Shown here one piece after another: positions 1 through 58,588 of a stretch of DNA of 64,000 nucleotides. Positions within the stretch are counted from its first letter, which is position 1. The number at the start of each line of letters is the position of its first letter. The notes beneath the pieces were generated by a model. It did no database searches, was not told the origin of the DNA, and worked only from the letters and a program-made list of their open reading frames with translations. Made by a program: the position numbers and the translations under genes. The DNA is from Blasia pusilla (taxonomy: Eukaryota): assembly GCA_050084515.1 (NCBI GenBank), contig CM114271.1, forward strand, positions 48,484,001 through 48,548,000. Direction: 5' to 3'.

Positions 1-3000
1 GTCGATAGAAGTTTGCCAATCCCATGAATGCACGAACTTGACTCACATCTGTAGGGCGTGGAATGCGTGAAATAGCCTCTACCTTTGTCTGTTGCACACC
101 AAGGCCCCCAGGGTATATCGTATGATCCAAGTACTCAATCTGGTCGTAAAAGAACTTGCACTTGCCTGGATGTAGCTTCAACCCATATAACTGCAATCGT
201 CGAAACATCTCCTCTAGTTGTCGCTCATGCTCCTCAACCGTGGCGCTAAAGACTACGATGTCATCAATATAACACCTAGAAAAATCCAGACCTGCCAAGA
301 TCCTATCCATGACTCTCTGAAACTCAGCCGGGGCATTCTTTAACCCGAATGGTAAGAACCGCCACAAGTACAAATAATCCTTCCCGTGAGGATCGATGCC
401 CCAAAATACCGTCTTTTGCCTGTCCTCCAATCTGATAGGCAACTGATGGTATCCGGCTCGCAAATCCAATGAACTGAAGATCTTTGCATGCCCAATCGCA
501 TCAAAGATCTCCTCAAGGATGGGCATGGCATATCTATGCATACTAAATGCAAAACTAAATGCAAAACAGCTCCTATAACTCCTAAGGAACTGGTGTATCC
601 AATGCCCCGCTCTCCTCTTGTCAACTTAGGGCCCATATCTGGCTCCCAAGTCTCAATCGTGACTACGATAGGACTCTCTGACACGGATGTCGGTGGTTGC
701 TATGGTGCAACCCCATCTCGGACAATAGAACTCCCATCTCCACGTGCAGTACCCAGAACCACGCTCGATGTTGTGGCTATCATCTCCTGGCGTACCTACA
801 AAACATCCAAGGGTGTCTCTCCCAATAACCCCTGGTGTGTTGATCTCCTCGAGTCTTGCCCCCAACCACTACCTCAACCGTCTCAATAGGCATGGGGCTC
901 ACCAAAGCAACAACTGTGATTTGTCGCATCCTCAAACGACAATGCTCAGCTACTCCTAAGCTAAAAATCCATGTCAAGCAGTTCAGGTCCATCGCCTAAC
1001 CCAAGACATGATGTCGTGATGCCTCACAGGAGCGATAGTGATGGTATTTCCATCACTCCTGTGGGGAATCCTATCACTTGCTCTCGCTCATCGGCGTTGG
1101 GCTTCACCAACCTCTATATCTGGTCATTCCAAACCAAGCCTGGTTCGGCCTCCTTGAATGCATAGGAAGCAAGAAAACTCACCAATGTGGGAAAGGCGGC
1201 TCGTGGCATGCCAATCCTGTTGACCACAATCAACGGCAGTCCATCATCGTGCCTCACTGCCTGTGATCGACGGCTCGGATCCAATATAGAATCCACCAAC
1301 AAATCGGAGGGACGCTCCACTCTCGCATAAGCCCTCCGCAATACCTCATGTGGTACCAAGTTGGTCCACCAAAGATGCGGGCGATGTGCTCGTGAACCCA
1401 CACTCGCTACATCTAACAACACTGCCAAGCCAATCCATGTGCGCACCTGATGTGTACTCGTCACCACGCAGGACCTCGAATCGCCCAAAATTGGCACAGT
1501 TTCCAAAATGTTTGTTGGAGAACGAGATTGATGCTCCTATAAATGTCTCAAGATCCGCATCATCTCCCTAAATAACCTGGATCGAGTGTCAGCTAACTCG
1601 CTACCTTGTCTAGCACTCGATTGGCCTTGACACGGCCAACCAGCAATGGCCAAGTCTATGGTCCCTACCTGCCCGAGTCTTCCGCCCCCAACAATGAAAT
1701 GTCCCTTGGTAGGGAACTTTGGTAACCTTGAATAGCAGACGCAGACAACAAGTTGGGAAAACATAGGCGTAACAGCGCTACATGGTGAAGTGAAGCGCGC
1801 CTCGCAACATCATCAATCTCCACATACAGGTACTGCTGCACTCGCACTCCAGCATGAAAAACAGCAACTAACCTAGTGCTGATCCCTCCAAAGAGATCCA
1901 ACACTCGAATACCCTTCTCTAGGATGCACCACACAATCGGGGTTATGTCCAAAGGGGTCTTAGCAGCACTCTTGCCTACCTGGGGTTCCTCTAACCCGTC
2001 ACACTATAGTGCAAATATCTCACTCCACGCGGTCTGCACATGCTCAGTGGCTAAGCGTCGAAGCTCCTCAGTCGAGCCCCAAAGCGGCACCTCTCCTCCA
2101 CGAACGGATGCGGCTACCATGACACTCCTCTCCATAGAAATATCAAGAACGGGAGTATCCTTTCCATAGACATGTCCCTCAATCAAATAACTAGGCCAAG
2201 TGATGGCACTACTAAATGCTGCTAAGATCGCCATCTATCCTTGTGGTTGCTCAATCACTCCATCTGTGAATTGAATGGGTAATGAGCTAAGGCGCCCATC
2301 ACCTGACTGCCATCTTGGTCTGTAGGACGCAGACTCCTCCCTGTAATCCAAGGAAAACCCCATCGGATATAACACTACTCCACCAACCAAGACGTCGTAG
2401 GACTCTGCAACAATCACTATCGCCTTGGCTCGCACCACGGACTCATTTGTAGTATGTCCCGGGCGAATCCTCACCACGACCTCCTATCGGGTGATATACT
2501 GTACTCCACCCAAGGATGTCTGTATCCAGAATGGAAAACTCTCAACATCGACTCTCATCAAGCCCAATCCTCTAAATGACGCTTTCCCCAACATCAGGGG
2601 TTGCGCTCCTGAATCCAACAAGACGCGCAGCGGACTAAAAGCTCTTCCTCCGGGACTCACCAACTAGAAGACCTCTCCCTGGTTATCCAGCAACACAACA
2701 CCAAGAGAAACCATGGCACGCTCTATCGCGGGTCTAGCGGGAATCTCCGCCATCCTAGCAATCGCAGCCTGCCATGAATCTGACGTGGACGGCCCGAACA
2801 TCTGCTCAAGGCAGGCCCATCATCTCCTCTACAATCACATCTGAACGTGATGGAGGAACTCCAACTCCACGATCCAGCCAAAAAACCTCCGCGGGCGTAC
2901 CTCCCAACGTCATAACATCGGAGGCTGAAAATAAAGGACCGCGGTACACAACAGTGGCCGCCCCTAACAACGTGCTTGACACATGCCCCTCCTGAGCATC

Positions 3001-4903
3001 AAAAATAGGAGTCATCGAACTTGCTTCTCCCATCGCTCTCCGTGCCTGCACACCAAAAACACCACCTACTCTCCAGGAACTCTGATCAGGACCCATCGAT
3101 GGGGTCCTCATCGCCTCGGACAACGTGAAAGACTAAGGAAGCCTAGTCTGTTTCCTCGCTTCCCCTCGTTGTGGATCCTGCTTTGCGGCTGCTCCACGAG
3201 TCACAACTGCGGCGGCCTCCATTTGGGCAACCCTGCACATCCAACCGAGATCCTCCATGTCTCTGGCTGCTCCATATGATGTCGATGCCACGGATCCGGC
3301 ATCGGATAACCTCAATGCCATAGCGGCAATCTGCTCTTGTAGCTGTTGTATCTGAGAAGCCATCCGAGCTTCATGCCTGGCATCTCCCTTGACGCGTCTA
3401 GGTGGTGGGACTCGACCTCCTCCACGGGCAGCTCCACCACCTTGTCAAGAAACTTCAGCTCCTCGTCCCCCAACAAGACCACCTAGTGCACAACCTCTAG
3501 CCCCACCTGGACCGGCTTTTCGCTCTAGTGCCCTCTCTAGCCCTCCGTCCGGACGTAACTCAAGATGTAAATTGAAACACCTGGCGCGTGTATGACCATA
3601 CCTCTGACAATAGTCACACTAATAACCTCCAGGTGCAGCACCATCTCCTCCTCCATGCTAAGGCACACGTCCATGACCTTGACGAGTGCAATTGCATTGA
3701 TGATGGGCTCCACCACATGACCAATAAGTAATAGTAGGCGGCTGTTGTTGAGCCACATATGAAAGCGTAGGTATCTGTGGCACGGCCTCCCAATATCCTC
3801 CCTGAGCTCGTAGTGCCATACTCGACCTATCTTGGAGTCAACGTTACTGCACAGGTCGTGCAGACAATCATGACTGCTCTTGCCCAAAACCCATGGTGGC
3901 TACGCTCTCCTCCACCATGTTGCGCTCAATGTTCTGTACTGTCCTAAAAACATCTCTCAAAGTAGGAGAGGTGTTCATAAGAAGCACCTCCTCCCGCATC
4001 CATGTCCGCAGGGTCTGATCCAACATCGCGTACCATGACTGGATAGCCTGAGCCTCCGTCATCCCGTGAGTGACATTGATCAACCGGCGCAAGCGAGTGT
4101 AAGCCTCAGACAAACTCTCACTCGGGCGCCTCTAGAACTCATGGATGCTCCGCAACTTCTCCATCCGTACCCCCTGGTAGCTCGCCCTCAACTCAACAAA
4201 GAACTCAACCATGGGGTTGAACCTGGGACGAACCCGACTAGATGGTGCATCTGCTCCAGTGCGAGTGACCCCTCCTAAAACATCACTAGTGGAAGAGGAA
4301 GTAGCCTCTCATGACTCCTCCTCCTCCTCATGTGGGATGAGGAGGAGGAGTCATAGTAGAGTCGCCATGCCTCAATCTCCTGGGCATATCTGTGGGAGAA
4401 CTCATGGTAATCGTCCATGGGCGCCCCTTCTAAATGCTGGAACATACCGTTCCATGTTGTAAAGGGCTTGAACTCTCTAGAGTTCCTAGCCCACTGTGAG
4501 TCACACCAACTCCTAAACTCCGCAATGAAGTCGTGTAGCTCTATAGTGCCTACAGCACCCAAAAATCTAGGCGGTCCTCTATCCCGGTCATCCATCTCGT
4601 ATGCCCAACTGGTAGGACCACTCAATGTGTATGGTGGATCACTAACACACTCCTCTACATGCTCACTCTCGTCTGAAGACAACACAGAAGGAGATCGAGG
4701 TGGTCTCTCACGTGGAGACCCTCGAAACCTCGCACTACTCCGGGTAAACCCTCCAGAACTACTCTGAGGTCCACTACCTCGCCTCTCCAAATCCCGAAAG
4801 GACGCCGTGATGGCCCTCGTGCCCCTCTCACATGATCACTCTTAATCTCGGGAGTAATCTCTCAATCACCCAAACTAAACATGTGGCACTCAATCTACAC
4901 TCT
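1..4903 (-). mobile_element. Decayed Ty3/Gypsy-type retrotransposon: gag - zinc knuckle - protease - DNMT3-like MTase - RT (runs off window start)
   Basis: Minus-strand frames show gag (FLGAVGTIELHDF, 4275-4790 and 3868-4113), a zinc knuckle CDYCQRYGHTRARC (~3575-3625), protease RVLLDSGAQPLMLG (~2590-2630) and RT motifs LDLRAGYHQ, LPFGLKNAPAEFQ and YIDD (~250-480). Many stops and frameshifts; the 5' end is cut by a solo LTR. Confidence 0.9.
960..1920 (-). pseudogene. C5-cytosine DNA methyltransferase catalytic domain (DNMT3-like) inside the Gypsy pol region
   Basis: Motifs appear in canonical order: I VLDLFGGIS, II YVEIDD, III PRDISLLG, IV IDLAIAGWPCQG (catalytic PC, ~1624-1644), VI ILETV (ENV-like), VIII LLDVASVGSRAHRPHLWWTNL, IX EREQVIGFP, X VLG*AMD. 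There is a frameshift near 1670-1760 and an in-frame TAG at 1537-1539. Confidence 0.88.
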
Positions 4904-6196
4904 TGTGATATCCACAATTTTGTACTTTTGAAGAAATATATCTTTTTATTCAACGAAGACTTGTATATACATTATGATTTGGTTATTATATATTATCATA
5001 GGGAGGAATGAGTAAGATTAAAGTGAATCACAAAGCTCCAAGGACAAGGCAGAGAGATAGAAAATCAAGGATTTGCCTAAGAGGAGAGGAGACTAAAATA
5101 ACGACGTCTCAAGACCCAGCAAGAAGCTTCGGAACGACAACGAAGCATAACGAAGCTCAACAAAGCTCTGTCTATGAAGTGCTTCGCTCTATAATGAAGC
5201 ATAATGAAGCAGGAAGAATAAGAGAAAGAAGTACTTCGATCTTATACAAAGCACGAAGAACAAAGCACCTGGAACAAGAACCAAGACTGGAGCGCTTCGT
5301 CTTCAGATCAGGAGAAACAGCTTCGTGCTCAAGCGAAGAAAAAGAGGTCCAGACTTAGCAGCGAAGCGAAGCTAAGACTGACAATGATTTCAAGGGACAC
5401 ATAGTTAGAATAGTTAGAATAGGAAGAGACGCAACCCTTTGTATCAAATTGGTAGTTATGACAGTTTTGTTCTGCAGATTCATAGGGATCATAGGAAAAG
5501 CAAAGAGCACCATAGATCTAGGTAGTTACAAAAGTTGAAGAGCCACCAGCTTCATCAAAATCGCTTCGAATCTTTGGATCACTCCTCCTTCAGAGAGTAT
5601 TTAAGAAGCATAGAAGTAGCTATCATTATCATTCTCTTACGAAGTCCTTATGCTGTAGGAATGGTCCGAGCAAGGGAGTAGTACCCTCTCAAGCTTGTAT
5701 ACACTTTGAAGCTTTCTCATTCTTGATGGAGTAGTAAAGCAATCATTCCTTCATTCTAATGTGCGATGTTTATGTTTGAGTATTCTTATTGGGTCTGTAG
5801 AGTGAGGAGTGAATCACGCGAACCTTTCTTATCAATGAAATAATCAACATAAAGTTGTAGGAAATCTGTTTGACAGAGAGTAGCCTACCGAGACGCATTG
5901 AGTTCTGAAAGTAGGAGAAGTCAGCTTTCATGTTGAGGTCTCTGTGAGGTTTCTTGATATCGAGAGGAAATCTACCTGAGCGTGTTGTCAACTCCACTAG
6001 AGAGAATTCAGAAAAGAAACTTTGGTACTAAGAAAGATCCGAAGATATTGATAAGACATTGAATATAAATCATACACATTTAAATACAACTATTACAACA
6101 GAATTGTAATTTCGAACTCTCTTTTCATCAAACAATAATCCTCTTGAGGATCGAACTTATCTAACGATTGTAAAATAGAAACTCTTGTACATTACA
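4904..6196. mobile_element. Solo LTR (TG...CA), same family as 45275-46491; flanks do not form a TSD
   Basis: Starts TGTGATATCCAC and ends CTTGTACATTACA. Colinear along its whole length with 45275-46491. Flanks are ACTCT and ATAAG. Confidence 0.8.
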
Positions 6197-6242: not shown

Positions 6243-7225
<983 letters not shown>

Positions 7226-10866: not shown

Positions 10867-13800
10867 TTACACTCAATATAACGTCATTCAATCAACTATG
10901 AACCAATACCACACACAATTTCAAGGTGGTGATGGTGGACGGTTGGGGTCAAGATCAGCAGCAGAGGGTCCTTGGATCTTGCAATTACTATGGGATAAAG
11001 GATCACTATGCAAAGTTTTGCTTGAAGAAGAAGGCAGATATGAGAACAAGAGCCTTACAACAACAAAACTATGTGGAGCAACAACACCAAGAGCACTACC
11101 AAGAACAACAATATTAAAAAACGGAGCATTTCTTGATCATGACTCATCATATGAGAGCAATGGTCAAGAAAGACTCGACAACAGATTGATACATTGACTC
11201 TGGTGCATCAAATCACATGATCTCACAAGCTAAATGCTTTAGTAGTTTGGAGCCGGTGAAAGATCCTGCAATTGTGCTCACAGAAGATGACACTCAACAT
11301 CATATCACGCATACCGGTAAAATTCCAATAGCATTAGATAGTCTTTGTGCTCTTGGAAATGTTCTCTATGTTCCTACCATTGCAAGAAATATGATCTCTG
11401 TAGGACAAATAGTAGAACAAGGTTATCAACTAAAGTTTAACGCAGATGGTTGTTTCATTAAAACAATGGATGACCAGACTACGATAGCCAAAGGAACTAG
11501 ATCTAGTAGAATATTCAAATTAGATATTTCTATGCCAGAGATTCAAACAATAATGTATGGTCAAATCGGCCAACAAGTCACAGATCTAAATGTGTGGCAT
11601 AAAAGAATTGGACATATGAATCTTCAAATATTACAGAGTCTTTCATCATATAATATAATAATAAGACTTCTTAAATTAGCGAGTCTTGCTACGTTAGAGG
11701 TTTTCCTACTTGCCAATTTGGAAAATAAGCTAGATTTATTTTTCCAAAGCAAGGTAGAAGAGCATCCAAGATATTGGAGTTGATCCACAGTGATGTGTGG
11801 ACACCATCACAACATAGCCTTAGTGGTTTTCAATACTTTGTTTCATTTATTGATGACTTCTCTAGATATATATGGGTTTACTTTCTGAAAGCCAAGTTAG
11901 AGGTATTCTCAGTGTTCCAAACATTGAAAGTTCTAGTAGAGAAGTAGACTGAAGAACATATTTTGAAATAGCGTTGTGATGGAGGAGGAGAGTATCTTTC
12001 AACAGTGTTTGATGACTATTTACGTCAGAATGGCATCCAAAGTCAAGTGACTTGCCGTTACACTCCACAAGAAAATGGAGTGGCTAAGAGAAAGAATCGA
12101 CATATTGCTGAAGCGGCACGAACTATGCTGAATAAGAAGAACATGCCTAAGGTGTATTGGGCATAGGCAATAACATGTCTAGTCTTCTTAATCAACCGAA
12201 CTCCAACAGCAAGAGTTCATGATAAAACTCCATTCGAAGTCTTCATAGGAAGTAAACCTGATTTTTCCTTTTTGAAAGTGTTTGGCTGTATTTGTTATGC
12301 TCATGTTCCTTCTGACAGATGTCAGAAATTAGACCCCAAGTCTGAAAGATGTATCTTCATTGGCTATGCTGATGGAACCAAGGGATATAAGCGCTACATT
12401 CCATCTTCTAGGCAGCTTATTATTAGTCGAGAGGTTATCTTTGATAAGCTAAAGTCATGGTATGCTCCATCTGAGCCTATTCCACCTCTAAAATCGTTTG
12501 TTGAGGGGGAGAATATGACTATAAACCAACAGACATTGTCTTCAACTTCCCCAAGTACTAGTGCACGATTAGGAGAGGTCTTAGATTCATCACTTAAATT
12601 TGTGAGTCCATGGAGAGGAAGAGTACGTATTCAGTCTGTTGACACAAGTCAGAGCTCGAGTCACGTGTTAGAGGCATCTACCTCTAAACAAAAACTTTGT
12701 AGATCAAGTAGAGTTACACATCCAATTCATAGATTCATAAATGAAGGTTTCCTTGCAACACATCATGGATATATGATGACTATCCTTCAAGAACACGAGC
12801 CAAGTTGTTTTGAAGAAGTTGCAAGTAAAGTCGAATGGATTGAAGCTATGGAGGAAGAGCTTGCTGCATTAAGACATCAACAGACATGGGAGCTGGTTGA
12901 TATACCTTCTAGTAAGGAAGCTATTGGTTGCAAATGGGTTTACAAAATCAATCGCAATCAAGATGGTATAATTAACAGATACAAAGTGATATTGGTGGCT
13001 AAGGGTTGTGCACAACAATATGGCATCGATTATGAGGAAATATTTAGCCCTCTTGCAAAGATGGCGACTACGAGAACAGTGGTTGCAGTTGTAGTAAGTA
13101 AGAAGTGGAGATTACATCACGTGGACGTGCGTCAAGAATGCCTTCTTGAATGGAGATCTATACGAGAAGGTATATATGACTTGGTATGGCAAGATTACAT
13201 TCATCCTACAAGAATGGGGTTTTAGGATATGTGATTCTGACTCCTCGTTATATGTCTTGAGAGGGCAAAATCATACGGTTCTCATTGTGTTATATGTTGA
13301 CGATCTCCTGATTACTTGGAGTACTGAAGAAATGGTATAACAAGTCAAGCTTAAGTTACAAACAGAATTTGATATGAAGGACTTTGAAGAACTCAAATAC
13401 TTCCTTGGTATAGAGTTTATCAAGGTTGGAGAGAGCATGTGGTTACTACAACAACAATATGCTATTTATATGCTTTCAAAATATGGTATGACGGCTTGTA
13501 AGCCAATCGCTATACCATGAACCAAAGTGTGAAGCTAAGAGTGGATGAAGGAGAGTTTATTGCAGATTCTAATATGTACAGGCGCATGGTTGGAAGTTTG
13601 ATCTACCTAACTATAACCTGACTAGATTTGAACTATGTTGTTGGCCTAGTGAGCCAGTTTATGCAAGTACCTCGAAAACCTCACCTTGATGCCGTAAGGA
13701 GGATTATGCGGTATGTGAAATTCTCTATTCAATTCGGGCTTCAATTTGAACCTTCTCCGAGTTTTCAATTACAGGGATTCACATATGCTGATTGGGTAGG

Positions 13801-14100
13801 AAGCGTGTCTGATCGACACCCCACATCTGGTTATTCATTTACCTTGGGAAGCGTAGCTATAAGTTGAGTTTCAAAGAAGGAACCTACAGTTGCTTTATCC
13901 TCAACAGAGGCTGAGTACAGAGCAACCAATGCAGCATGTGAGGCGGTGTGGCTTCATCGATTACTTGTTGAGATTGGTGTTAGTAACTTAGGACCTTGCG
14001 TAATATATACAGACAATATTATTAGTATCAAGCTTGCTAATAACCCTGTGTTTCATGCTGTACAAAGCATGTTGAGGTGCACTATCATTTTATCCACTTT
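10867..14100 (+). mobile_element. Truncated Ty1/Copia element (end of gag, PR, INT, RT, RNase H; no LTRs), same family as 17741-23003
   Basis: Zinc knuckle CNYYGIKDHYAKFC, PR IDSGASNHM, WHKRIGHMN, INT FIDDFSRY, RT IGCKWVYK and LYVDDLL, RNase H YADW. There is an internal deletion near 13178. Colinear, in inverted orientation, with the full-length copy. Confidence 0.92.
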
Positions 14101-17665: not shown

Positions 17666-20600
17666 TGTCGTACGTATACACGTCCTTACACAACATACAT
17701 CGCTAGTCACATCCACACCACACAACACCAATCTTCCCCATGTGGAAAACTACTAAAGAAGCATAATTGGTGAGAAACGGGTCTCACACTTACACACCAC
17801 CATGGAGAACCAAATTTGCAATGAGAGAATGAGTGGAGGCTGGTCCCCTTCTCAATTATATAGAATAGGTACAAGCAACCCTAACCCTAACCTTAACCAT
17901 AGTGTCAAGTTAGACTACTATGATTAACTAACCCTAGTTAAAATAATCGCGATTAATTCACTAACCAAAATTAAGCTTCCCTACTTCGTGTATGTACCAA
18001 ATGTAGCAGTTCAGATGTCTCATAAGTTTGACTCTAACTCAATCTTCAATACTCTCCCTCAAGCTCATATCGATATCTCTAACGCCTAAATCATTTCTAA
18101 ACATCTCAAACTTATCTTGCTGACATCCTTTGTAAAGATGTCAACAATTTTCTGATGTGTACCTATATACATAAGATCAATTTCTCTTCCAAGCACTTTC
18201 TCTTTGATAAAATGATAGTGCACCTCAACATGCTTTGCACGAGCATGAAACACAGGGTTATTAGCAAGATTGATGCTACTAGTATTGTTTGCATATATTA
18301 CACTAGGTCCTAAGTTACTAACACCAATCTCTGCAAGTAATCGATGAAGCCACACCGCCTCACATGCTGCATTGGTTGCTCCTGTATACTCAACCTCTGT
18401 TGAAAATAAAGCAACGGTAGGTTGCTTCTTTGAAGTCCAACTTATGGTTGCGCTTCCCAAAGTAAATAAATAACCAGATGTGGAGTGTTGATCAACACGC
18501 TCCTTGCCCAATCAACATCTGTGAATCGGAGAAGGTTCAAATGAAAGCCCGAATTGAATAGAGAATTTCACATATCGCATAATCCTCCTCACAACATCAA
18601 GGTGAGGTTTTCGAGGTGCTTGTATAAACTGGCTTACTAGGCTAACAACATAGCTCAAATCTGGTCTGGTTATAGTTAGATAGATCAAACTTCCCACCAT
18701 GCGCCTGTATTTATTAGAATCTACAAGCAACTCTCCTTCATCCACTCTTAGCTTCACACTCTGGTCCAACGGTGTAGAGATTGGCTTACAAGCCGTCATA
18801 CCATATTTTGAAAGCATATGAAGCCCATATTGTCATTGTAGTAACCACATGCTCTCTCCAACCTTGATAAACTCAATACCAAGGAAGTACTTGATTTCTC
18901 TAAAGTCCTTCATATCAAATTATGCTTGTAACTTAAGCTTGACTTCTTGTACCATTTCTTCAATACTCCCTGTAATCAGGAGATCGTCAACATACAACAC
19001 AATGAGAATCCTATGATCTTGTCCTCTCCAGATATATAACGAGGAGTCATAATCACATATCCTAAAACCCAACTCTTGTAGAACGTATGTAATTTTGCCA
19101 TACCAAGCTCTTGGAGCTTGTTTGAGCCCATATAGAGCTTTCTTCAACATGCATATGCGAAATGGAAACTTGGGATGCTCGTATCCAGGTGGTTGAGTCA
19201 TATATACCTCCTCGTATAGATCTCCATTCAAGAAGGTATTCTTGACGTCCATGTGATGTAATCTCCTCTTCTTACTTATTGTAACTCTAACCACTGTTCT
19301 CGTAGTCGCCATCTTTGCAACAGGGCTAAATGTTTCTTCATAATCGATGCCCTTTTGTTGTGCATAGCCTTAGCCATCAATCTTGCTTTGTATCTATTAA
19401 TTGTACCATCTGATTGCGTTTGATTTTGTAAATCCATTTGCAGCCAATAGCTTCCTTACCGAAAGGTATATCAACTTGAACTCATATATGTTGATATCTT
19501 AATGCAGCAAGCTCTTCCTCCATAGCTTCAATCCATTTGACTTTACTTGCAGCTTCTTCAAAATAACTCGGGTCTTGTTCTTGAAGGGTAGTCATCATAT
19601 ATGCATGATGTGCCGCAAGAAAACCTTCATTTATTAATCTATGAACTGGATGTGTAACTCTGCTTGATCTATGAAGTTGTTGTTCAGAGGTAGATGCCTC
19701 TGATACTCCTCAAAAGACTAAATACGTACTCTTACCGTCCACGGACTCACAGATTTAACCGATGAATCTACGACCTCTCCTAATCATGTACTAGTACTTG
19801 GGGAAGTTGAAGATAATGTTTGTTGGTTTACGGTCACATTCTCCCTCTCAAGAGACAAGTTTAGAGATGGAATAGGCTGAGATGGAGCATACCATGACTT
19901 TAGCTCATCAAAGACAACATCGCGACTAATAATAAGCTGCCTAGAGGATGGAATGTAGCACTTATATCCCTTAATTCCATTAGCATAGCCAATGAAGATA
20001 CATCTTTCAGACTTGGGGTCTAATTTTTTAAGTCTCTCTAAAGGAACATGAGCATAACAAATACAGCCAAATACTTTCAAGAAGGAAAAACCAGGTTTAA
20101 TTCATGTGAAGACTTCAAATGGAGTCTTATCATAAACTTATGTTGTTGGATTTCGGTTGATTAAGAAAATTGCATATGCTATAACCTCTACCCAATATAT
20201 TTTAGGCATGTTCTTCTCATTCAGCATTGCTCGTGCCGCTTCAGCAATCTGTCCATTCTTCCTCTCAGCCACTCCATTTTATTATGGAGTGTAACGGCAA
20301 GTCACTTGACGTTGGATGCCATTCTGACGTAAATAATCAACAAACTCTGTTGAAAGGTACTATCCTCCTCCATCACACCGCAATTTCAGAATATGTTCTC
20401 TAGTCTGCTTCTCTAATAGAACTCTAAATATTTGGAACATTGAGAATACCTCTGACTTGGCTTTCAGAAAGTATACCCATATATATCTAGAGAAGTCATC
20501 AATAAATGAAACAAAGTACTGACAACCACTAAGGCTATGTTGTGATGTTGTCCACACATCATTATGGATCAACTCCAATACCCTGGATGCTCTTCTACCT

Positions 20601-23600
20601 TGCTTTGGTAAAGGAAATCTAGCTTATTTTCCAAATTGGCAAGCGGGACATACCTCTAACATAGCAAGACTCGCTAATTTAGGGAGTCCTATTACTATAT
20701 TAGATGATGAAAGACTCTGTAATTTTTGAAGATTCATATGTCCAATTCTTTTATGCCATACATTTAGATTTGTGACTTGTTGGACGATTTGACTATACAT
20801 TGCTATTTGAATCTCTGGTATAGAAACATCTAATTTGAACATTCTTCCAGATCTAATTTCTTTGGCTATCGTAGTCTGGTCATCCATTGTTTCAATGAAA
20901 CAACCATCTGCGTTAAACTTCACTTGATAACCCTATTCTACTATATGTCCTATAGAGATTAGGTTTCTTGCAATGATAGGAACATAGAGAACATTTCCAG
21001 GAGCACAAAGACCATCTGATGCTATTGGAACTTTATCAATATACGTGATATGATGTTGAGTGTCATCTCCTGTGAGCATAATTATGCGATCTTTCACTGG
21101 CTCCAAACTACTGAACCATTTAGCTTGTGAGGTCATATGATTTGATGCACCAGAGTCAATGTACCAATCTGCTATTGAGTCTTTCTTCACCATTGCTCCC
21201 ATATGATGAGTCATGACCAAAAGATGCTTTGTTTGTGAATATTGTTGTTCTTGGTACTGCTCTTGGTGTTGTTGCTCCACATAGTTTTATTGTTGTAAGA
21301 CTCCGGTTCTTATATAAGCCTTCTTCTTGAAGCAAAACTTTGCATAGTGACCCTTTATCCCACACTAATTGCAAGATCCAAGGACCCTCTACTGCTGACC
21401 TCGACCCCAACAATTTCCACCATCACCACCTTGTGATTGTGTCTGGTATTGGTTTGTAGTTGATTGAGTGACGTTATGTTGAGTGCCTCTTCCTACATAT
21501 GCTTGATATCCATCACGACCACGGAAGCTTCTGCCACAACCCCTGCCTCTCTTTGATCCATAACCTGCAAATAGCGCACTCTCTTGCAGACTAGACGAGC
21601 TATCGCTGCCTACTAGGCACATCTCTTCACCGATTAACAGTGGAACTAACTCTTGAAAGGTTGGATACTTCTCTCTCATAGAGATAGAGGTCTCAAAGGA
21701 CTTGTAATCATTTGGAAAGCCTTAAAAAGTGAACAAAATTAGATCATCATCTTCTATTGTCACTCGGATGCTATTCAACTTATCAACAATGTATCTTATA
21801 TTCAAAATATAATTATTGATGCTCTACGATCCTTTCCTCACTTCGTTCAATTATTGTTTCAATTGAAGCTTTCTGGCCTTTGTAGATGTCTGGAACAACT
21901 TTTCCAATGCATCTCAGGCCTCCTTCGGAATATCAATATTTTGAATGTGACTTATCATCGGCGGATTGATCGTTATTGAAATGTAGTGGATTACTTGCCT
22001 TGCGTATTTATTCCAGGCGCGAACATTCAAGTATGTTGAGTCACCTTCTGGCTTGGCCTCATCACCTGTGACAAGCTCCCATAGTTCTTGATCCATGAGA
22101 AATTGTTTCATGCGAAATTTCCTGACATTGTAATTATGCTTAGCTAGCTTCTCGCCTGTGATTGTTGCTAAGGAATACTCCATGACAAACGATTTCACTC
22201 ACAAAATTGTAATTTCGGGCTCTCTACGACTCTAGTTTAAGCATAGACTACTCCAAAATAGAAATCGACTTGAAATTTGATCAAATGTATGAAGGAACTA
22301 GTCGAAATTAGCTTGTAGAGAGCAAACTGCACAACTTTTCTTCACTAATTGCACTTTCCTATATTGAAATTGCTATTGCATGAGCTCACAATGTCAGAAT
22401 CGAGCGATTTTGGATGCATTGGAAAGCTCTTGACGAGATCTAAAAGATGGCATGATCTAAAATTGGGCATCATTGTTGCTTCCATGGAACCAAATGGCTA
22501 AATCGGTCGGGAAAGGCCCTCAAAAACACCTCCAAAGTTGTATCATCATCAAAGCTCCACCTGAAATCTGCACCCACTGAGCTGTGAATAAAACTTCCTT
22601 CTCCCAAGCTGAAATTGTGCCTTCTCTTTCATCTCTTCTCTCCTAAAACACCAAGAATTTCAAGTGATGTTCTCCTATCGCTCTGATACCATGTAGAAAA
22701 CTGCTAAACAAGCAAAATTGGTGGAAAACGGCTCTCACATACACACACCACCATGGAGAACGAAATTTGCAATGAAAGAATGAGTTAAGGCTAGTCCTCT
22801 TCTCAATTATATAGGATATGTACAAACAACCCTAACCCTAATCTTAACCATAGTCTCGAGTTAGACTAATTGTGATTAACTAACCTTAGTTAAGATAATC
22901 GCGCTTAATTGACTAACCAAGATTAAACTTCCTTACTTTGTGTGAGTACCAAATGTAGCAGTTCAGGTGTCTCATGAGCTTGATTGTGACTCAATCTTCA
23001 ATACCCCGCACACGGGTAGATACACACATGTACAAAAATCAACTCATACATGGAGATCACACAACAAAAATAAAAATGGCATATACGGCCTAAAAACTCC
23101 ACTCCTCAATCTACATGAGCATATCAAGCCTAGTCCATCCTGTGCTATCAAGGAATCCGAACGCTAGCACCCAATCCTAACTCACACACGAGCAAGAATG
23201 GTACTCCAACGGCCCAACATGAGAAAGATGGCTTGGGGAGGCCATCTTCCTCCCTTATATAGGTTTGGGAAGAGCCAAAAAGATCTTCCCCTAAAGATAG
23301 CTATCCTCATGGTAACCTGCGCGTACAGGTTACCAGGGGCGGGTGACCTACTCAACAAGTCACCCGGTTGTAAAAGACCTCAACAGAAAAGATGTCAAAA
23401 ATGACGTTCTTGACACAACGGACCTATCCTCAACCTCATCCGACACCTCGAGACAAAGTTACACTCAAGACAATCCCCTAAATCCTATGTCCTATCGTCT
23501 ATTCAGATGTGATAGTTGTCGTGCGCATACACATCGCTACGCAACATACATTGATGGTCACATCCACACCATACAACATCGATCTTTCCCACACACGGAT

Positions 23601-24305
23601 AGATCCACACATGTACAGAAATCAAGTCATACATATACATGGAGATCACACAACCGCCCCCCTAACTGGCAATTGGATCCCCCCAACTCCAGATAGAAAA
23701 TATCACATCTTCCTGACATGACCTACTACCCTATACACATCTCGGACATATCCATCGTCCTGTGGGAACTACATCAAGAGGGGGGGTCAAACATGACATA
23801 TGCCATAGCCAAAAACAACCATCACATACCAACATGGTGGTTGTATCCCATGCAGATCCCCACAACATACACCTCAAGCCTGCAGATACCACTGCCAAGC
23901 TCGGATCCACTGTCTTGTCCATGTTCGAAAGGTGACGTGGCGTATAGTTGCACACATGATCCTTCCAAACCATACCATCATGTCTCTCCAACATGAGGAC
24001 TCCGGTCGGTAATACCTTGCGCACACGTAGGATCGTGCGCCCTGTAGTGACATCTAGCGTCGTGGGTGCCGCATGCTCTAAATACACGTAATCTCCAGGA
24101 TGAAACCTCCTAATCCATGGATGATAACCTCCTCCACGAATGGTTCCGTACCTCAATGTATCCCTTTGGTAAGCAATAACTAAGTTCTTAAAGGCCATGG
24201 GCATAACTCTACAAAAATCTCCGCCCTTTGAGAACACGCTTGTACCCACATATCTGGATCATCAAGATCTAACACCTCTACCATGTCAGGTCAAATAGTT
24301 GTATG
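17666..24305 (-). mobile_element. 3' part of a PHD-bearing Gypsy-type element: integrase C-terminus, PHD, G-tract and B1-A2-B2 terminal repeats (B2 split by a Copia)
   Basis: ORF 23731-24249 ends in a degenerate PHD (CML..MLVCDGC..WHMSCLTPPLDVVPTGRWICPRC). G-tract 23655-23670; B1 23517-23654; A2 23066-23514; B2 is 23004-23065 plus 17666-17740. Confidence 0.8.
17741..23003 (-). mobile_element. Full-length Ty1/Copia LTR retrotransposon (coding region decayed)
   Basis: LTRs at 17741-18051 and 22692-23003. PBS TGGTATCAGAGC (tRNA-iMet) at 22680-22691; PPT at 18052-18060; TSD CCCCA/CCCCG. ORF fragments give the order gag-PR-INT-RT-RH ([38 protein letters not shown]). Confidence 0.95.
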
Positions 24306-29221: not shown

Positions 29222-32200
29222 TGTCGTGCAAATCCACATCGTCATACAACATACATCGCTGACATACCATACTCACATACATACATAACATAGACGAGAG
29301 CATCCACAAACACAAGTGTACCACAACTGAAATCCGTGAAAGACCTACTGTCATAAAACAAGTATAGAATCACATAAAATTGAGCCAAACCCACTCCACG
29401 ATGGGAGAATCCACGTCGAAGCTTGCGGGAACCACCATAGCCAACAACTCTACTCATTACTAAGGCTAACTCCCAACGCAACACGCTCAACTCAAAGAAC
29501 TAACTATTCTTTGAGTGCACTCCACACTATATCCTCCAACCTAAGAGCGGGCCCTACTAGAAAAGTCACCCTCAACTGAGTAACCCCCAACCCTATGTAT
29601 GAAACCGCATCTCTACCTAAACACTACGGCCCTACATAAGGTATGGCCTCTACTAGCACACCATACTCTACGACATAATCCGTATGGTCATGACAGTTAT
29701 CGTGCGAATCTACATCGTCATACAACATACATCGCTGACATACTATATTCACATACATACATAACATAGACGAGAGCATCCACAAACACATGTGTACCAC
29801 AACTTGCCCCCTAACTGGCGGTTAGGTCCCTCTAACTCCCTGGTAGCCCTATACATGTAGTACATGTTATACACCTTCTTGGGTGCATGAATCAGAAGGT
29901 CGGGTGCTAGGTTGCCCCATCGTTAGTCGCACATCTGTAATCCATATCATGCAAAGATCAAGTCATCTACCTCTCCTAAGTACATTGAGGACAAACCCAC
30001 CTTCCAGTAGGAACAACATCCATATGTGGAGTCAAACACATCATGTGCCAACCCCTAGAACACCGATCACACACCAACATACGGGTTGCGCTACCAGCAG
30101 ACCCACACAACATGCACCTCAAGCTAGCACGTATCATGGCTAAGCTTGGGTCAACAACACCATCCACATTTGGAAGATTACATGGCGCAAAATAACACAG
30201 ATGGTCCTTCCAAACAACTCCATCTCGACTCTTCAACATGAGAACTCCAAAAGCTAACACCTCGCGCACTAGTAAAATAGTGCGGCCTGTCGTCACATCC
30301 AACGTTGTCGGTGCAATCTGCTACAAATAGACATAGTCCCCCACATGGAACCTACAAATCGATGGTCGATAACCTCCACCTCGAATGGTTGCATACCACA
30401 ACGTATCCCTGTGTTGAGCAATGGCAAGGTTCTCAAAGACTGTTGGCATAACTCTCTGAAAGAGCTCTGCCCGCTGAGAACACATTCTCATCCACATCTC
30501 TGGGTCATCAAGGTTCACCACCTCACTAGACTCATGACGAATTGCTGCGGGCAAGTCTGGATCTCGGCCATATAACAGAAAATAAGGTGAGAAGGAAGCC
30601 AAGGATGCTTGGCGACTGAACCTATACCCCATGGCTAACCATGGCAACTGAATATCCCAGTCTCCAAGATGCCCCTTCTGTAGGCCATACTTGCACAATA
30701 CCCTCTTCACCGTCTGAATCACACGCTCAACCAAACCATCCGCCTCTGGATGATCTCGAGACGTGGTCCGATGATCAATCAACGCCTTGTCACACAAGAC
30801 TTGAAACTCACCCTGAAACTCCGTTCCTTGGTCGGTCAACACTTCAGCTGGTGCACCAAAATGACTAAGCACTCTATCAAGAAACGCATACGCCATTCCC
30901 TCACTTGCCTTGTCAGGTAATGCCACCAACTCAATCCACTTGGAGAAGTGCTCCACCATCACCAACACATATCGATGATGTCGTACAATCAACGGTAACG
31001 GTCTCGCAAAGTCCACACTCCAACGGTAACCCAACCCCATAATAGGCAAGGGGTGTAACTGTGGTGTAGGGGCATTGAATGATGCCCTCACCCGATCACA
31101 AACCATACAACATGACACCAACTGCTGCACCTGAGTATGCATGCCACGCCACCAATACTGACCAAGGAGTAAGCTATACGTACGCTTTACCCCAAAATGT
31201 CCCAACTCCTCATGGGCATGTCGCACAATGCGCTCTCTCTGAGCCAAATGCGGCACTACTCGTACTCTACCATCCTCCCACACACGGAGAATATGTGTTT
31301 CCTCCGATCGATACCTCTTAGCACGTTGAAGAACACAGTCTTGCCGTGGGGCCTCCTCTTCCTCGTGAGGTATGACAGCCTCACACCAAGCCTCCTTCAC
31401 TAGGCGATCAACCTCTTGCCGTAGTACACCGCTTGAACTCCAAAGTGGCACATCCAACGATGAGGATGCCACTACTGCAAAACTAGGGACTTCCTCTACC
31501 TCCTCATGCACAGGAGAATCCATAGCAGAAAGGTTACTCTCCAAAAAGTCTCCTGGCCAAGTGACTACTCCACAAAAACCAGCCATAGACGCTAACACCG
31601 TTGGAGAAGACCCTCTAGGTCGAACCTCATAAATAAATCTCACAGGAACCTAGCTCATACGTCAATCCTATGACTGCCAACCAGGTCTATAAGACGCTGT
31701 CTTAGTCCAGTAGTCCATCTGAAAACCCATTGGGTATAATACTGCTCCTCCAACTAGTACATCATATGACTCGGCTGATGTGACCACTGCAGGTACTCCC
31801 AACCGGGAGCTATCATTTGCATGATCTGGTCTTAACTGTACAGACAACTTCTCCCGTGTCATGAATTGAGACCTATCATTGGATCCTCCAAGTGATGTTT
31901 GAATCTGGAATGGGCAAGGCTCAAGCTCTGACCTCCGAATACCCAAACCAATACATGCCGCCTTTCCCAACATCAAAGGTTGGGCACCAGAATCTAACAA
32001 GACTCTATCTGATCTATACACCTGTCTTGTAGGACTCACCAATCGGAATATCCCACTCCGGTTGTCCAACATACATACACCAGGTGTAAGCGTCTCACGA
32101 TCAATGGCAGGCCGGGCTGGTAATGCATCCATCTTCGCCGCTGCTGCCTGCCAAGTAGCACTGGTACTCAATGCTACACCTGACATTGAGGGTCGCTCCA

Positions 32201-33480
32201 TCGCAACACCTTCATCCACCTCAACACGTGTAGCAGTAACACCCCCACGTTCACACAATGTGGCTACTAGCTGAAATATAGGAGCTAAGTCAACTCCTAA
32301 AGCCATCAGCTCCGTGTCCGAAAACAATGGGGATCCCAACACTGAAGTTGCCATCCGCAATACTGCACTGGATGCTGCATCTGTGTCTACTACACGCGAT
32401 GTAGATGCCTCAATCCCCATTGTCGACTCAATAGGCTCTGTAGGAACCATGGATGGAGTCCTAAGCACCTCAGACAACAAGAATGACTGGGGAAGCCTAG
32501 CGTGCCTCCCAGCCTCACCCCTCTGTGGGTCCAACTCCACAGTAGCACCACGTGGCTCTAACGCTCGAGTGGCTCCTCTCGTAATTGCAGCTGATGCCTC
32601 AACCTATGCTGCACTCGCCATATAAGAGAGATCATCCCCTCCATAAGAGATGGAAGCCCTTGCTCCCGAATCTGCTCTATGCTGGATACCAGCCATAGTA
32701 GCCAACTTCTGCTCCAATTGCTCAATCCTGGCAGCCATAGCTGACTCTGTCGTAGTGGTAGGGATGGCTACCGTAGGCTCTCCAACCACTCGTCCACCTC
32801 TACCATCCCTACCACCTCTACCACCTTGGCCTCTCGGAGCTACTCCACCAGGGCCGCGGCCTGATCTCAACTCTGGATGAAGATCAAAGCAACGCTCTCC
32901 CGCAATGATCACACTGAGTTGGGGCCGACTGAGGCCCATCCTCCAAAGTCCGTTTCCCATCCTCTTGGGGACAAAACCTCCTAACATGATCACCTCCACG
33001 TGTCCAACATGACTGTCCTTGCTGCGGGGCAAAAAATGAAGGCAATGGTCTCTACGCAAGTGTCCCTCTAGGACCTGACTGAGGTTGTGTGTACCCCCCA
33101 CGACTCCCACTACTACTACCACCACCACTACTACGAGACTGTGAGGTGGACTTCTGAACACGAGAAGTAGTAGTTGTATCCCTATTGAATGTGGATGTCA
33201 ACACTCTCTCCTCCACCATGTTAAGCTCAATCTTCTCAGATAGAGCAAACACATGGGTCAATGTGGGTGAATCATCACTCATAAGAGTAGCATCAGGTAC
33301 ACTGCGGCGCAACTCTCTGTCCAAGATCCCATACCAAAAATGGACTGCCTGAGCCTCAGTCATACCATGGGTAATTGAAATCAAGTGTCGCATACAAGTG
33401 TATGCCTCACAAAGACTCTCACCAGTCTCTCGCTCAAATTCCTGAAGATTCCTCAACTTCTCTGTCTTCACTCCTTGATA
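29222..33480 (-). mobile_element. Internally deleted Gypsy-type element: gag-PR fused to integrase-PHD, ending in B1-A2-B2
   Basis: Gag 33052-33480; PR VLLDSGAQPLMLG (31668-32540). The integrase has an H2C2 finger and DDE (WSVDF, LTDQGTEF, GLVER) in 30321-31643. An intact PHD CMLC..CDRC..HMMC..WVCPQC lies in 29976-30302. B1 29698-29803, A2 29328-29695, B2 29222-29328. No RT or RNase H. Confidence 0.9.
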
Positions 33481-36400
33481 GTAAGTGAACCACATTCGGG
33501 CCTAAAGTTACCTTCTTTTTCCAGGCTTGCAAGAACAAGTAGACATCATAAGACCACTACAAACATCCTTCCATCACTCTCCATTTGAGCCCAATTTTCT
33601 TCACATTGCCTGTCTAAGCCAGCTCTACAGTAAGCCGGGCTGAGGGGTATTAATGTCGGAGGATTATCAGCAGATAATTTGAACCAAAGTAGCAATTTCA
33701 TCTCAATGAAAAGTTCAAAACAAGACTCTAACTATTGTCTCAATAGACTCCTATGCCCTTCAAGGTTTAACTACTTAGAAGATGTGGTTGACATTATGGA
33801 TTGTTGACTCTTCTTGCATTAAATATCCCATCCGGTCAATACTCATCCATGAGGAGGTTTTCCACAATAGAAAAAATTCACTCATCACTCATGGTAGCCA
33901 AAGACTTTCATGATATCATTGGATGATGTTGGCTCATGAATGGGTGCATAAAGTATGAAAGACAACTTGGTTTCACCATTCTCTCAGCCATTGAGAAATG
34001 TATGCATCAAGAAGAAAATATGATGAGACTAAGAGGACAATTGAACCAAAAGGTTGATAGCTATCAAGAGTAAAGAGGAATTGATGCACCCATGTCCCTT
34101 CATTCAGACCCTAAATGTCAGAATCTGACAAGTTGCACCCCTTCCAACCCGTCGGAATCCGACAGGTTGCAACTCTTGCAACCCGTCGAAATCCGATGGG
34201 TTGCACCACTTGCAAGCAAGCACACCACAACAAAAGAAGGATCTTGAGAAGTGATTCCATTCCATCCTACAACCCATGAGAATCTGTCTGGTTGGGAATC
34301 TGACATAAGAATCCGATAGGTAGTAGGAATCCAACACGTCTTTGAAATACCGTGTTAGAGGAGAATGGTGTGATGATAATGGGGGAACGAGGCAAAAGTG
34401 AAAAATCCTCCCAAAATGCCTGAAAAGTTGGACTAGCAAGAAAAGAGTGGGATCACTCAAGCAGCCAACCTATCGGAATCCGACAAGTTTCCTGCAAGGG
34501 GTTTAAAATATTGTGACAAGTTGCAACCCGTTGGAATCCGACGGGTTGCAAAATAAACAGCCTCCAGTAGATAGACCAACACAATCGACAAGAACAAAAA
34601 ATAAAATTCAGCAGAAGTTTGCAAAAACCTCATGGTTCAAAAACTTTGTGTCCTTTATTATATCCGAGGGAAGCTCGGAAATGTACATTTGATCTAGTCT
34701 ATGATTTCTTCAGCCTCATCATATATAAATTTACTCCTAACTCTCCTAGATTCCTATACAAAAGGAATGTCTTGGGATACAAGTGGCTCCTCTGGCCGAT
34801 AGTAGACGGGTATTGAAAATGTTGGGGAATTCGAGAGCCTTGGCCCCCCTTGGTACACCATAACGGTCCCATGTAACATGATTTGAGTCCCAACACCTTC
34901 CTCGGTAGTAAATCTTGTATGCTCTGCAAGGTGACACCCATCTAGTATCAATATGTGCTCCGTCCTTGGAAAGCACTAAATCCCTTCTCCAAAACGCTTC
35001 AATCAAGATGGGTCCAATAAATCTTTGAACTCACTCGTCATCGTCCGATAGCTCTTCCAGAATTACTCTCGGCTTTGCCCTCCCGATTTTTGGAATAGTA
35101 GGAAGTGACAATGGTGTCACTATCAATGCTGGTTCTAGAACCGAGCTCTCAACTTTGGAGGAGAGTTGTATACTCCCACTAGCCTCTCATAATCCACCTT
35201 TGCCTCTTTGCAAAGGTCAAAAAGTTCCGGCCTTCCCTCAAGGGAGAGTATATTTATAGAAGAGAATTCATCGGCCAATGTGCCAGGCACCTCTAATAGG
35301 CCCCTAATAGGCCCACTAAGTCAAAGACCAAGTCACCCGGCCTTGAACAGAGCTCGATGAGCATTTGCATCAAGGCAGGTGAATTTTCCCTTGCTCCAAG
35401 TAAGGGGGTCCCGTCTTGCATGTAAATTCCAGCGAGGGGATTTTGGAGACTATCTAAGTTGTACCCATCGGAGCATGGATCCACTAGATCCGGGATCTGG
35501 AACACCTGGAAGTTGTGCTCGGGCCTTACAAAGCAGTAGACAAATGAGTGGTCCATCTGTAAACAAGCAGGTAAAAAATAATGTCGGCAAAAAGAAAAAG
35601 CTAGTAGATCCTAAGCTACTCTCCATAAAGTGACACAAAGTGCAAACCGTCGGGATCCGACGGGTTGCTTTTCAACCCGTCATACTAGTCCATACTAATT
35701 ACCAACTCGTCCGAACTTGGCCTATAGGCTTGATAGATAACGACCTGTCGGAGTCCGACGGGTTGTCTTACAACTATAACCCCTTTTTGGCCATAAGCAA
35801 CCCGTCGGAAGCCGACAAGTTGCTCATCTTGCTGGACAGAACCTCCACCGTTTCGAGTGCCATGGTTGGCTTACAACTGAATACAATTGTTCAGAGTTGA
35901 GAAGTTCCTAATATAAGAGCAACTCGTCACTTTCAGACGGGTTGCATCAATCTAGAAACACGGGGAAAAGCAGTGCTAATTGCAATCCGTCAGAACCCGA
36001 CGGGTTGCAGTCAATGGAGACTTGTTGGTGAATTTGCAACCCGTCGCTTTCAGACGGATTGCAACACCGCAGACACAAGCTGTTGGGATCCAACGGGTTG
36101 CATGCATAGATGCAACCCCTTGGAGCCCGACAGGTTGAATTTCAGTTAAACTAAATTCGTATAATAAGGGGACTTACCCGAACTTGACTCGTCGCCGATC
36201 GCAGTGGATACTCATTTTTAATTACCCATGATTGCATCGTCCTCCACTTCAGTGACCTCTTCACGCACTAAAGGTTGAAGAGCTTGTCTTCGCTCCGTCC
36301 AGTGAGGACCAAGAAACAACCCTTGTCACTCAGATATGCGTTGGCAAAAGAAACAGCAGCGCGATGTGGTCGTACGAAAGCGGGACATTCCAGTATGGGA

Positions 36401-45274: not shown

Positions 45275-46491
45275 TGTGATACCCACAATTTTGTAATCTT
45301 GAAGAATATATCTTTTTATTCAACGAAGACTCTTGTATATTATGATTTTTATTATGATTATTTATTATTATGAGGAAGAATAAGTGAATCACGAAGCTCC
45401 TGGGACAAGGCAGAGAGATGGAAGATCAAGGATTTGCCTTAGAGGAGAGGAAAACGCAATAACGAAGTCTCAAGACTCAGAACGAAGCTTAACAAAGCTT
45501 AACGAAGCTTAACGAAGATGTACAAAGCTCTATTTTTTAAGTGGTTCGCTACATAACGAAGCATCACGAAGAAAAGAAGAAAGAAGTACTTCGCTCTTTA
45601 ACGAAGCACAGGAGATAAGAACGAAGCATGGAGTACTTCGTCCTCCTGAAGTCCAACAAAGAGAAGCTAAGAAGGATTGTGATTTCAAGAGACACATGTT
45701 AAAACAGTTAGACTAGGAAAGGGCGCGATCCTTTGTATCAAATTGGTATTTAGGACAGTTTTGTACTGCGGATTCAAAGGGATCACAGGAAAAGCTAAGA
45801 GAACCATAGATCTAGGTAGTTAGAAATAGTGAAGAGACACTAGCCTCATCAAGAACGTTTCGAATCTTAGGATCACTTCCACTCCAGCGAATATTTAAGA
45901 AGCAAGGCAGAAGCCATAATCATCATTCTCTTACGAAGTCCTTATGTTGTAGGAATGGTCCGAGCAAGAGAGTAGTACCCTCTCAAGCTTGTATACACTT
46001 TGAAGCTTTCTCGTTCTTGATGGAGTAGTAAAGCAATCATTCATTCATTCTGATGTGCGATGCTTATGTCTGAGTATTCTTTTTGGGTCTGCAGAGTGAA
46101 GAGTGAATCAGGAGAACCTTTCTCATCAGTGAAATAATCAACCTGAGTTGTAAGAAATGTGTTTGACAGAGAGTAACCTGCCGAGACGGATTGAGTTCCG
46201 AAAGTAGGAGAAGCTAGCTTTTGTGTTGAGATCTCTGTGAGGTTTCTTGATGTCGAGAGGAAAATCTACCTGAACATCCTGTCAATTCCACTAGAGAGCA
46301 TTGAGAACAGGTCCTTTGGTTCTAAGAAAGATCAGAAGATATTGATAAGACATTGAATATAAATCACACACAGTTACATACAACTATTACAACAAAATTG
46401 TAATTCCAAACTCTCTTTTCATCAAACAATGATCCTCTTGGGGATCGAACCTATTAAAATGACTATAAACTAAAAACACTTGTACATTAGA
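45275..46491. mobile_element. Solo LTR with 5-bp TSD, inserted between the two MULE genes
   Basis: GGAGG at 45270-45274 and 46492-46496 flanks TGTGATACCCAC...CTTGTACATTAGA. Homologous to 4904-6196. Confidence 0.9.

Positions 46492-58459: not shown

Positions 58460-58588
<129 letters not shown>

Follow-up and report, generated by a model that had tools for sequence, protein, structure and literature searches.

A decayed Ty3/gypsy retrotransposon with a DNMT3-type cytosine methyltransferase between protease and reverse transcriptase, a copy from a family repeated and transcribed in its liverwort-like host

We analyzed a 64,000-nucleotide stretch of DNA (the window) from the Blasia pusilla assembly GCA_050084515.1 (contig CM114271.1, positions 48,484,001 to 48,548,000). 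On its minus strand, positions 1-6192 contain the 5' two-thirds of a Ty3/gypsy-type long terminal repeat (LTR) retrotransposon, here called element A. Our reading, which we consider very probable, is that element A is a dead copy whose polyprotein comprised gag, protease (PR), a DNMT3-type C5 cytosine methyltransferase (DNMT), and reverse transcriptase (RT), followed in intact relatives by RNase H, integrase, and a PHD finger, and that the methyltransferase is a standing part of a repeated, transcribed family. An earlier note, made from the letters of the sequence, had proposed a gypsy-type element with a DNMT3-like methyltransferase inside its polyprotein. This description is borne out: the copy has an LTR, a CCHC zinc knuckle, a DSG protease motif, and the YIDD motif of RT, and its relatives match DNMT3A, DNMT3B, and DNMT3C before any other methyltransferase.

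All parts of element A lie on the minus strand. The 5' LTR (4903-6192; 1.29 kb, with a TG start and a CA end) is 80% identical over ~1.3 kb to a second copy of the family LTR at 45275-46489, also on the minus strand; no primer-binding site was recognized after the element A LTR and no target-site duplication at the second LTR copy. The gag region (2820-4835) is broken by stops and frame changes and was delimited from pieces of open reading frame (ORF) and from tblastn matches to residues 5-218 of P0004 and 210-434 of P0013 (relatives from public proteins are designated by P numbers throughout); it contains the CCHC zinc knuckle CDYCQRYGHTRARC at 3618-3577. The aspartic protease (2235-2723) aligns to the proteases of P0004, P0003, and P0171; its sequence, LLDSGAQPLMLGK, includes LLDSGAQ, with the DSG at 2615-2607, and its Pfam Asp-protease match is weak (E 0.045, below cut-off). 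A linker (1941-2234), in a common frame with PR and the first DNMT motif and collinear with P0004 residues 254-633, leads to the pseudogenized DNMT domain (940-1940), as located by PF00145, alignment to relatives, tblastn, and translations. A second linker (626-939) carries the conserved HPW and CFAFS-MH motifs, which precede RT in full-length relatives (CFAYSMHDLG in P0171 versus CFAFS..MH in the window). The RT (2-625; PF00078, 96.3 bits; YIDD at 271-260) has lost ~85 N-terminal residues at a junction at 537-554 and runs off the start of the window. Protease, linker, and DNMT motif I share a single frame (2819-1665) broken only by TAG stops, which fits a former single ORF. The order of protease before RT is seen in the copy itself; its RNase H, integrase, and 3' LTR lie off the window, and the RNase H-integrase part of the Metaviridae order PR-RT-RNaseH-INT is seen in a related element of the window (element D, below) and in P0029 and P0171.

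The ordered set of C5 methyltransferase motifs that the earlier note placed between protease and RT is present in full. Six motifs, located from translations and alignment to intact relatives, follow one another in the canonical, unpermuted order: motif I (FGGIS, 1892-1878), IV (GWPCQG, 1641-1624), VI (ETV, 1503-1495; ENV in relatives), VIII (AHRPHLWWTN, 1389-1360), IX (EREQVIGFP, 1089-1063), and X (AMDLNCLTW, 995-963). The Pfam C5 methyltransferase profile PF00145, a match to which the earlier note had made its test, recognizes the motif IV region above the curated cut-off of 22 bits, both in the motif IV piece (27.6 bits, E 2.4e-6) and in a translation of 1677-1027 read through the breaks with X (25.7 bits). 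Using the intact relative P0004 as a tblastn query, we found the window covered from 2789 to 819 in three pieces (E 2e-115 and 2e-81), and this homology, much stronger than chance would give, supports the whole DNMT domain beyond the part seen by Pfam. In a multiple alignment, the window pieces match the complete domains of the relatives column for column. The best PDB matches of the motif I piece are to DNMT3A and are weak (E 0.04), and a phmmer search of the window read-through against PDB returned nothing at E ≤1. In the ESM Atlas, the closest cluster is of eukaryotes, most often Streptophyta, and the next two, at the same score, are phage methylases; we take this as a lead only.

The type of the enzyme is clearest in the relatives. 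A profile of 19 of them, searched against PDB, placed DNMT3A, DNMT3B, and DNMT3C in the first 29 distinct sequences (E 1.4e-24 to 2.4e-18), with the plant DRM enzymes next (7e-15 to 1e-10) and then M.HhaI (1.8e-10), and DNMT1 was not among its matches at E ≤0.01. We also obtained an AlphaFold (AF2) model of the relative P0006 (mean predicted local distance difference test score, pLDDT, 77.8). Only DNMT3A, DNMT3B, and DNMT3C appeared among the 30 Foldseek matches listed for it (ranks 1 to 49), with a template modeling (TM) score, normalized by the target, of ~0.8 for isolated catalytic-domain chains, at 21%-22% identity. The relatives are thus DNMT3-type in sequence and in predicted fold. Host DNMT3A, 3B, and 3C, their best profile and fold matches, have the motif I-II pattern IRVL.LF.GI.T and the motif VIII pattern AHR.R..W.N in common with them. 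They differ in the low identity just given and in that the element domain is embedded in a retroelement polyprotein. Mean column identity among the 19 relatives is 26%; at least 90% of them retain the PC cysteine and the asparagine of ENV, and the E of ENV, R247, N252, and the motif IX ERE are invariant. This pattern of conservation in the catalytic columns fits selection for catalysis in the relatives.

The copy in the window itself is dead, as had been claimed from the sequence. The stretch running from protease through DNMT contains seven in-frame TAG stops, with first bases at 2666, 2486, 2237, 2006, 1539, 1116, and 998; three of these are within the DNMT domain (1539-1537, 1116-1114, and 998-996), which is also frameshifted twice (near 1672 and near 1025). 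The ENV of motif VI has become ETV, and comparison with P0171 places the deletion of ~85 residues from the RT N terminus at 537-554. When the window was compared with the majority of genomic reads (described below), we counted 563 differing places, at 157 of which the window has A for G and at 141 T for C, versus 55 and 53 places for the reverse changes. Element A has mainly lost G and C, a trend that fits decay of methylated cytosines. Most family reads differ from the window at the stop at 2486 (246 of 341), the stop at 998 (343 of 414), and the frameshift near 1672 (28 of 38), and these breaks are therefore not common to most copies.

Public proteins supply what the window copy has lost. 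In a word-indexed search for longer proteins, 13 of 13 long matches carry PF00145, and several are open gag-PR-DNMT reading frames; the best of these matches is a protein of the liverwort Calypogeia fissa (61% identity), and the other names seen among the relatives were a EukProt transcript id and Tetraselmis striata. An exhaustive search of cluster representatives gave 667 matches at E ≤0.001, 350 at ≤1e-10, and 20 at ≤1e-30. Among 191 proteins, we distinguished those with the DNMT after the protease or before RT, as in the window (type 1; 31 proteins, one of which, P0042, was later relabeled type 2), those in which RNase H precedes and integrase follows the DNMT (type 2; 74 proteins, mostly with a C-terminal PHD finger; examples are P0028, P0031, P0042, P0045, and P0053), and DNMT-only pieces (86). 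Two type 1 proteins are particularly informative: P0029 is a single ORF of 2188 residues with CCHC, PR, DNMT, RT, RNase H, and integrase, and P0171 is a single ORF of 2358 residues with PR, DNMT, RT, RNase H, integrase, and PHD. The latter realizes in one reading frame the order PR-DNMT-RT-RH-INT-PHD that had been predicted.

We placed the window domain among these relatives in two trees, a FastTree reconstruction of 141 DNMT domains and a quick IQ-TREE run on 61, leaving out domains of fewer than 280 profile positions and, from the IQ-TREE run, P0014 and 48 unsampled type 2 rows. Both trees group the window DNMT, the C. fissa protein, P0003, P0004, and P0005 in a clade of five rows (support 99 and 100). 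In the FastTree result, a branch of support 96 has all 71 type 2 rows on the same side, and the 24 of 72 type 2 rows sampled for IQ-TREE form one clade (support 99), apart from that of the window. With the copia-type DNMT of Tetraselmis (P0191, a long branch) as root, type 1 rows form several groups round type 2, and P0014 falls inside the ingroup on a long branch in the FastTree result and gives no usable root. Both roots tried are long branches, which do not fix the direction of a DNMT move within Pol. The two outlying proteins are of interest in their own right. P0191 (Tetraselmis striata by its EukProt name) combines copia-type domains with a DNMT in precomputed Pfam annotation, and P0014 is a polyprotein with a DNMT and a Dam adenine-methylase domain, resembling dual-methylase elements described in passages of a 2026 preprint. 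In the group nearest to the window, the predicted proteins P0002, P0003, P0004, and P0013 end 40-60 residues past the HPW motif that follows the DNMT, and at least two of the contigs run on beyond that point. Members of this subgroup may be organized as two ORFs, gag-PR-DNMT and RT-RH-INT, divided after the DNMT and not before the protease.

To see how the family is represented in the host, we placed reads of the same species label on the window at a likeness of at least 90%, summing mate directions. For DNA we used ~1 in 100 of one whole-genome shotgun (WGS) run. Depth was 75-261 in the five DNMT bins, 626-923 over the protease, 889-1442 over the RT, and 75-372 over the LTR, compared with 0.2 in the bin just outside the LTR. 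Most of the 24,790 placed reads (23,161) are 90%-95% alike to the window, with 67 at 99% or more, and so derive from other copies. Reads of three RNA-seq runs cover the whole element, with the first mate on the plus strand at least tenfold over the minus strand. RNA depth was 22-85 for the RT, 24-43 for the protease, and 0-8.4 in the DNMT bins, roughly proportional to DNA depth along element A. Nearly all RNA reads are likewise 90%-95% alike, and therefore come from other copies. The strand bias is opposite in the flank (5643-5859 and 6294-6500), which marks the libraries as stranded; with stranded libraries of the usual kind, this RNA would be sense to the element. We conclude that the DNMT belongs to a repeated, transcribed element family and not to a single capture.

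The window contains further related elements, all on the minus strand. In element B (29976-33501), gag, protease, and linker are followed at once by integrase with a PHD finger at its C terminus; DNMT, RT, and RNase H are missing. Residues 16-547 of P0004 align to its positions 32897-31272, ending just before the DNMT; Integrase_H2C2 and rve domains lie on 31649-30321 and the PHD finger (41.3 bits) on 30320-29976, and the step from linker to integrase falls inside one ORF (31649-30321). Element B is thus a deletion derivative, and it could be a non-autonomous form relying on full copies. Element C (51739-54269) consists of gag and protease and is truncated after the protease, and element D (37445-40019) consists of RT, RNase H, and integrase, being truncated at both ends, upstream of the RT and ahead of the PHD finger; its RT is 91.6% identical in DNA to that of element A. 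A further related copy is represented by an integrase C-terminal tail with a PHD finger at 23731-24258 (32.9 bits; tblastn match to residues 2185-2344 of P0171). The integrase-linked PHD finger that the earlier note attributed to the family is therefore found on element B, on this tail, and in P0171, and is not seen on the element A copy, whose 3' part is off the window; for element A itself, a PHD finger is probable from the sequences of its family.

Several observations weigh against the reading presented here. The Pfam match in the window spans only ~40 residues round motif IV, the remainder being recognized through relatives alone, and the three remaining pieces of the DNMT (with motif I, motifs VI-VIII, and motif IX) gave no Pfam match on their own. 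Motif IV of the element family is PCQ, whereas that of DNMT3A is PCN. Pfam found no PWWP or ADD domain upstream of the DNMT in P0013, P0019, P0029, and P0171, with at least 900 residues upstream, or in P0004, with 545; the relatives have a PHD finger on the integrase rather than PWWP or ADD beside the DNMT, and according to passages of a 2025 survey (PMC12344493) many DNMT3 proteins are without companion domains. The PHD link itself rests on P0171 and on elements with a gag-PR only ~50% identical to that of element A. RT and protease have 3 to 18 times the WGS depth of the DNMT, and many copies sharing the protease or the RT may have no DNMT (as element B), or a more diverged one. The DNMT segment is repeated, roughly on the order of hundreds of copies, a figure good to an order of magnitude only, the single-copy baseline being one 207-base bin. 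Finally, the domain of the Gypsy-Dnmt3 element of Klebsormidium gave no methylation in yeast, a result that its authors, in passages of PMC5890265, called inconclusive, human DNMT3B having failed too.

In intact copies, the DNMT would be translated within the polyprotein, beside the RT, and we lean toward the view that it is made there and is catalytically active, as the conservation of its catalytic columns suggests. Placed where the cDNA is made, such an enzyme would methylate the new DNA of the element before or at integration, so that new copies would arrive already marked, while the PHD finger of the integrase would steer integration by histone marks. This model follows one proposed for elements of Symbiodinium in passages of PMC5890265, where the CG methylation obtained in yeast with SymbioDIRS-Dnmt3 is the basis of the idea of self-methylation. 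By analogy with these elements, the element's own DNA is a possible target, and we propose it tentatively, the chances being somewhat below even. The competing explanation that survives best is that the domain is non-catalytic or differently used, as a structural or DNA-binding pseudo-enzyme, as an RNA methyltransferase, or acting in trans on host chromatin. The yeast result for the Klebsormidium element and the divergent motif IV speak for it, and RNA methylation and host-directed effects are discussed as options in passages of PMC5890265. The (near-)invariance of the catalytic residues across relatives as diverged as these is what selection on catalysis predicts, and the activity of the Symbiodinium domain in yeast likewise argues in favor of an enzyme; we regard a different use as rather unlikely. 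Doubtful, in our view, is the broadest form of the proposal, in which an old, streptophyte-wide gypsy lineage with a DNMT3-type writer and a PHD reader, repeated and transcribed in liverworts, would mark its own insertions with 5-methylcytosine, its DNMT having moved once within Pol, from PR-DNMT-RT to RNaseH-DNMT-INT.

A second possibility is that element A is a chimera, the RT at 1-537 stemming from a different, more abundant gypsy family and having been joined to gag-PR-DNMT by nesting or recombination. Reads do part from the window sequence on either side of 537-554 (826 loose ends at 537 and 318 at 554), RT depth is several times that of the DNMT, and element D, whose RT is so similar, has no DNMT upstream. 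Yet the DNMT side of the junction ends in CFAFS-MH, and family reads go on from it with MHDLG, as found directly before the RT in P0171, P0029, and P0170. This continuity with full-length relatives, which have the identical order, indicates that the DNMT-RT junction is an internal deletion and not a chimera, and the gap fits the loss of ~85 residues within one polyprotein. We therefore consider a chimeric origin improbable. A one-off capture, in which a fragment or retrocopy of a host DNMT3 gene would have landed inside a single gypsy copy, outside the element family, is very improbable: the DNMT has the lowest WGS depth in the coding part of the element and elements B, C, and D show none, but its bins still reach depths of 75-261, compared with 0.2 beyond the LTR, PR-DNMT-RT occurs in single ORFs from other sources with which the window DNMT is collinear, without gaps or introns and in the protease frame, and element B lacks precisely the part from the DNMT up to the integrase, as a deletion would leave it. 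The DNMT-bearing element family thus stands, in agreement with the earlier note, which had named such an insertion as one outcome that would overturn its proposal.

Retrotransposons carrying a DNMT have precedents. The closest is KnitGypsy-Dnmt3 of the charophyte alga Klebsormidium nitens, a Gypsy element with a Dnmt3-related domain in Pol (de Mendoza et al. 2018; PMC5890265). We compared it with the window family by its description; Klebsormidium was absent from the names seen among our protein matches. As presented in passages of that paper, both are multi-copy Gypsy elements of streptophytes with an unrearranged, intronless Dnmt3-related domain in the Pol polyprotein, and Ka/Ks on the DNMT is below 0.2 across the algal copies. 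They differ in host (an alga versus a liverwort-like land plant), in their repeats (described as DIRS-like for the algal element versus an ordinary TG..CA LTR here), and in abundance, with few copies in K. nitens versus the hundreds suggested here by read depth. SymbioDIRS-Dnmt3 and SymbioLINE-Dnmt of Symbiodinium are also retrotransposon polyproteins with a C5 methyltransferase, but passages of the same paper assign them to other classes (DIRS and long interspersed nuclear element, LINE), another host lineage, and independent acquisitions. The type 2 polyproteins described above (RT-RNaseH-DNMT-INT-PHD) resemble the window family in their related DNMT, their gypsy backbone, and the PHD finger that ends the integrase; they differ in the DNMT lying between RNase H and integrase, and in forming a clade apart. 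PHD fingers in retrotransposons are known as well (cited in passages of PMC6673714). In such reader-bearing retroelements, as in the window family, a chromatin-reader domain is thought to guide integration; they carry the reader only, whereas the window family would combine a reader with a writer of methylation.

DNMT3 in retrotransposons of 'streptophytes' is mentioned in passages of the 2025 survey (PMC12344493, citing PMC5890265) and of the 2026 preprint. Our literature search, which had most subscription papers and supplements outside its scope, did not turn up any description of a gypsy element with a DNMT from a land plant. Gypsy-Dnmt3 elements being known from Klebsormidium, what is added here is a family of them in a land plant, liverwort-like. 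Cytosine methylation is the main means by which plants silence transposons, and a transposon family that encodes a de novo enzyme reverses the usual picture. In the passages of these sources, the only published streptophyte case is an alga, with few copies and with enzyme activity not demonstrated. A repeated, transcribed land-plant family with intact natural relatives offers experimental material for assays of activity and target and for comparing DNMT-bearing with DNMT-less copies in methylation and insertion sites. In more practical terms, these elements will inflate the DNMT counts obtained in annotating bryophyte genomes. Were the lineage indeed self-marking, land plants would host transposons writing the very mark that restrains transposons, and such elements could have exchanged DNMT3 genes with their hosts.

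A gene in the window bears on the identity of the host. A phosphopantothenoylcysteine decarboxylase gene with at least two exons lies at 60928-61887 on the plus strand, and its best named matches are liverworts. The exon at 60928-61359 scores 211 bits against Calypogeia fissa (81% identity) and 204 bits against Marchantia polymorpha (81% identity), ahead of Sphagnum (174 bits), Selaginella (173 bits), and Physcomitrium (171 bits). The earlier note had supposed a land plant of the moss-like kind; the land plant stands, and by the sequence of this gene a liverwort is more likely than a moss.

The remaining features are minor. RNA reads at 5643-5859 and 6294-6500 have a strand bias opposite to that of element A (first mate on the minus strand), and molecule ends pile up at 6459 in all three RNA runs; an opposite-strand transcript has its start or its end within the element A LTR or close outside it. 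On the plus strand, three large open frames of 516, 349, and 140 residues occupy 47808-51310, adjoining the truncated element C, and these may belong to a DNA transposon. The cysteine and histidine pattern of the 140-residue frame resembles that of a SWIM zinc finger. An inverted repeat pair of 2.3 kb with 88% identity lies at 10870-13181 and 19196-21485, and beside it a further pair of 0.9 kb at 13180-14094 and 18206-19107. Long (GA)n and (CA)n microsatellites are found at 6850-7050 and at ~58450-58560.

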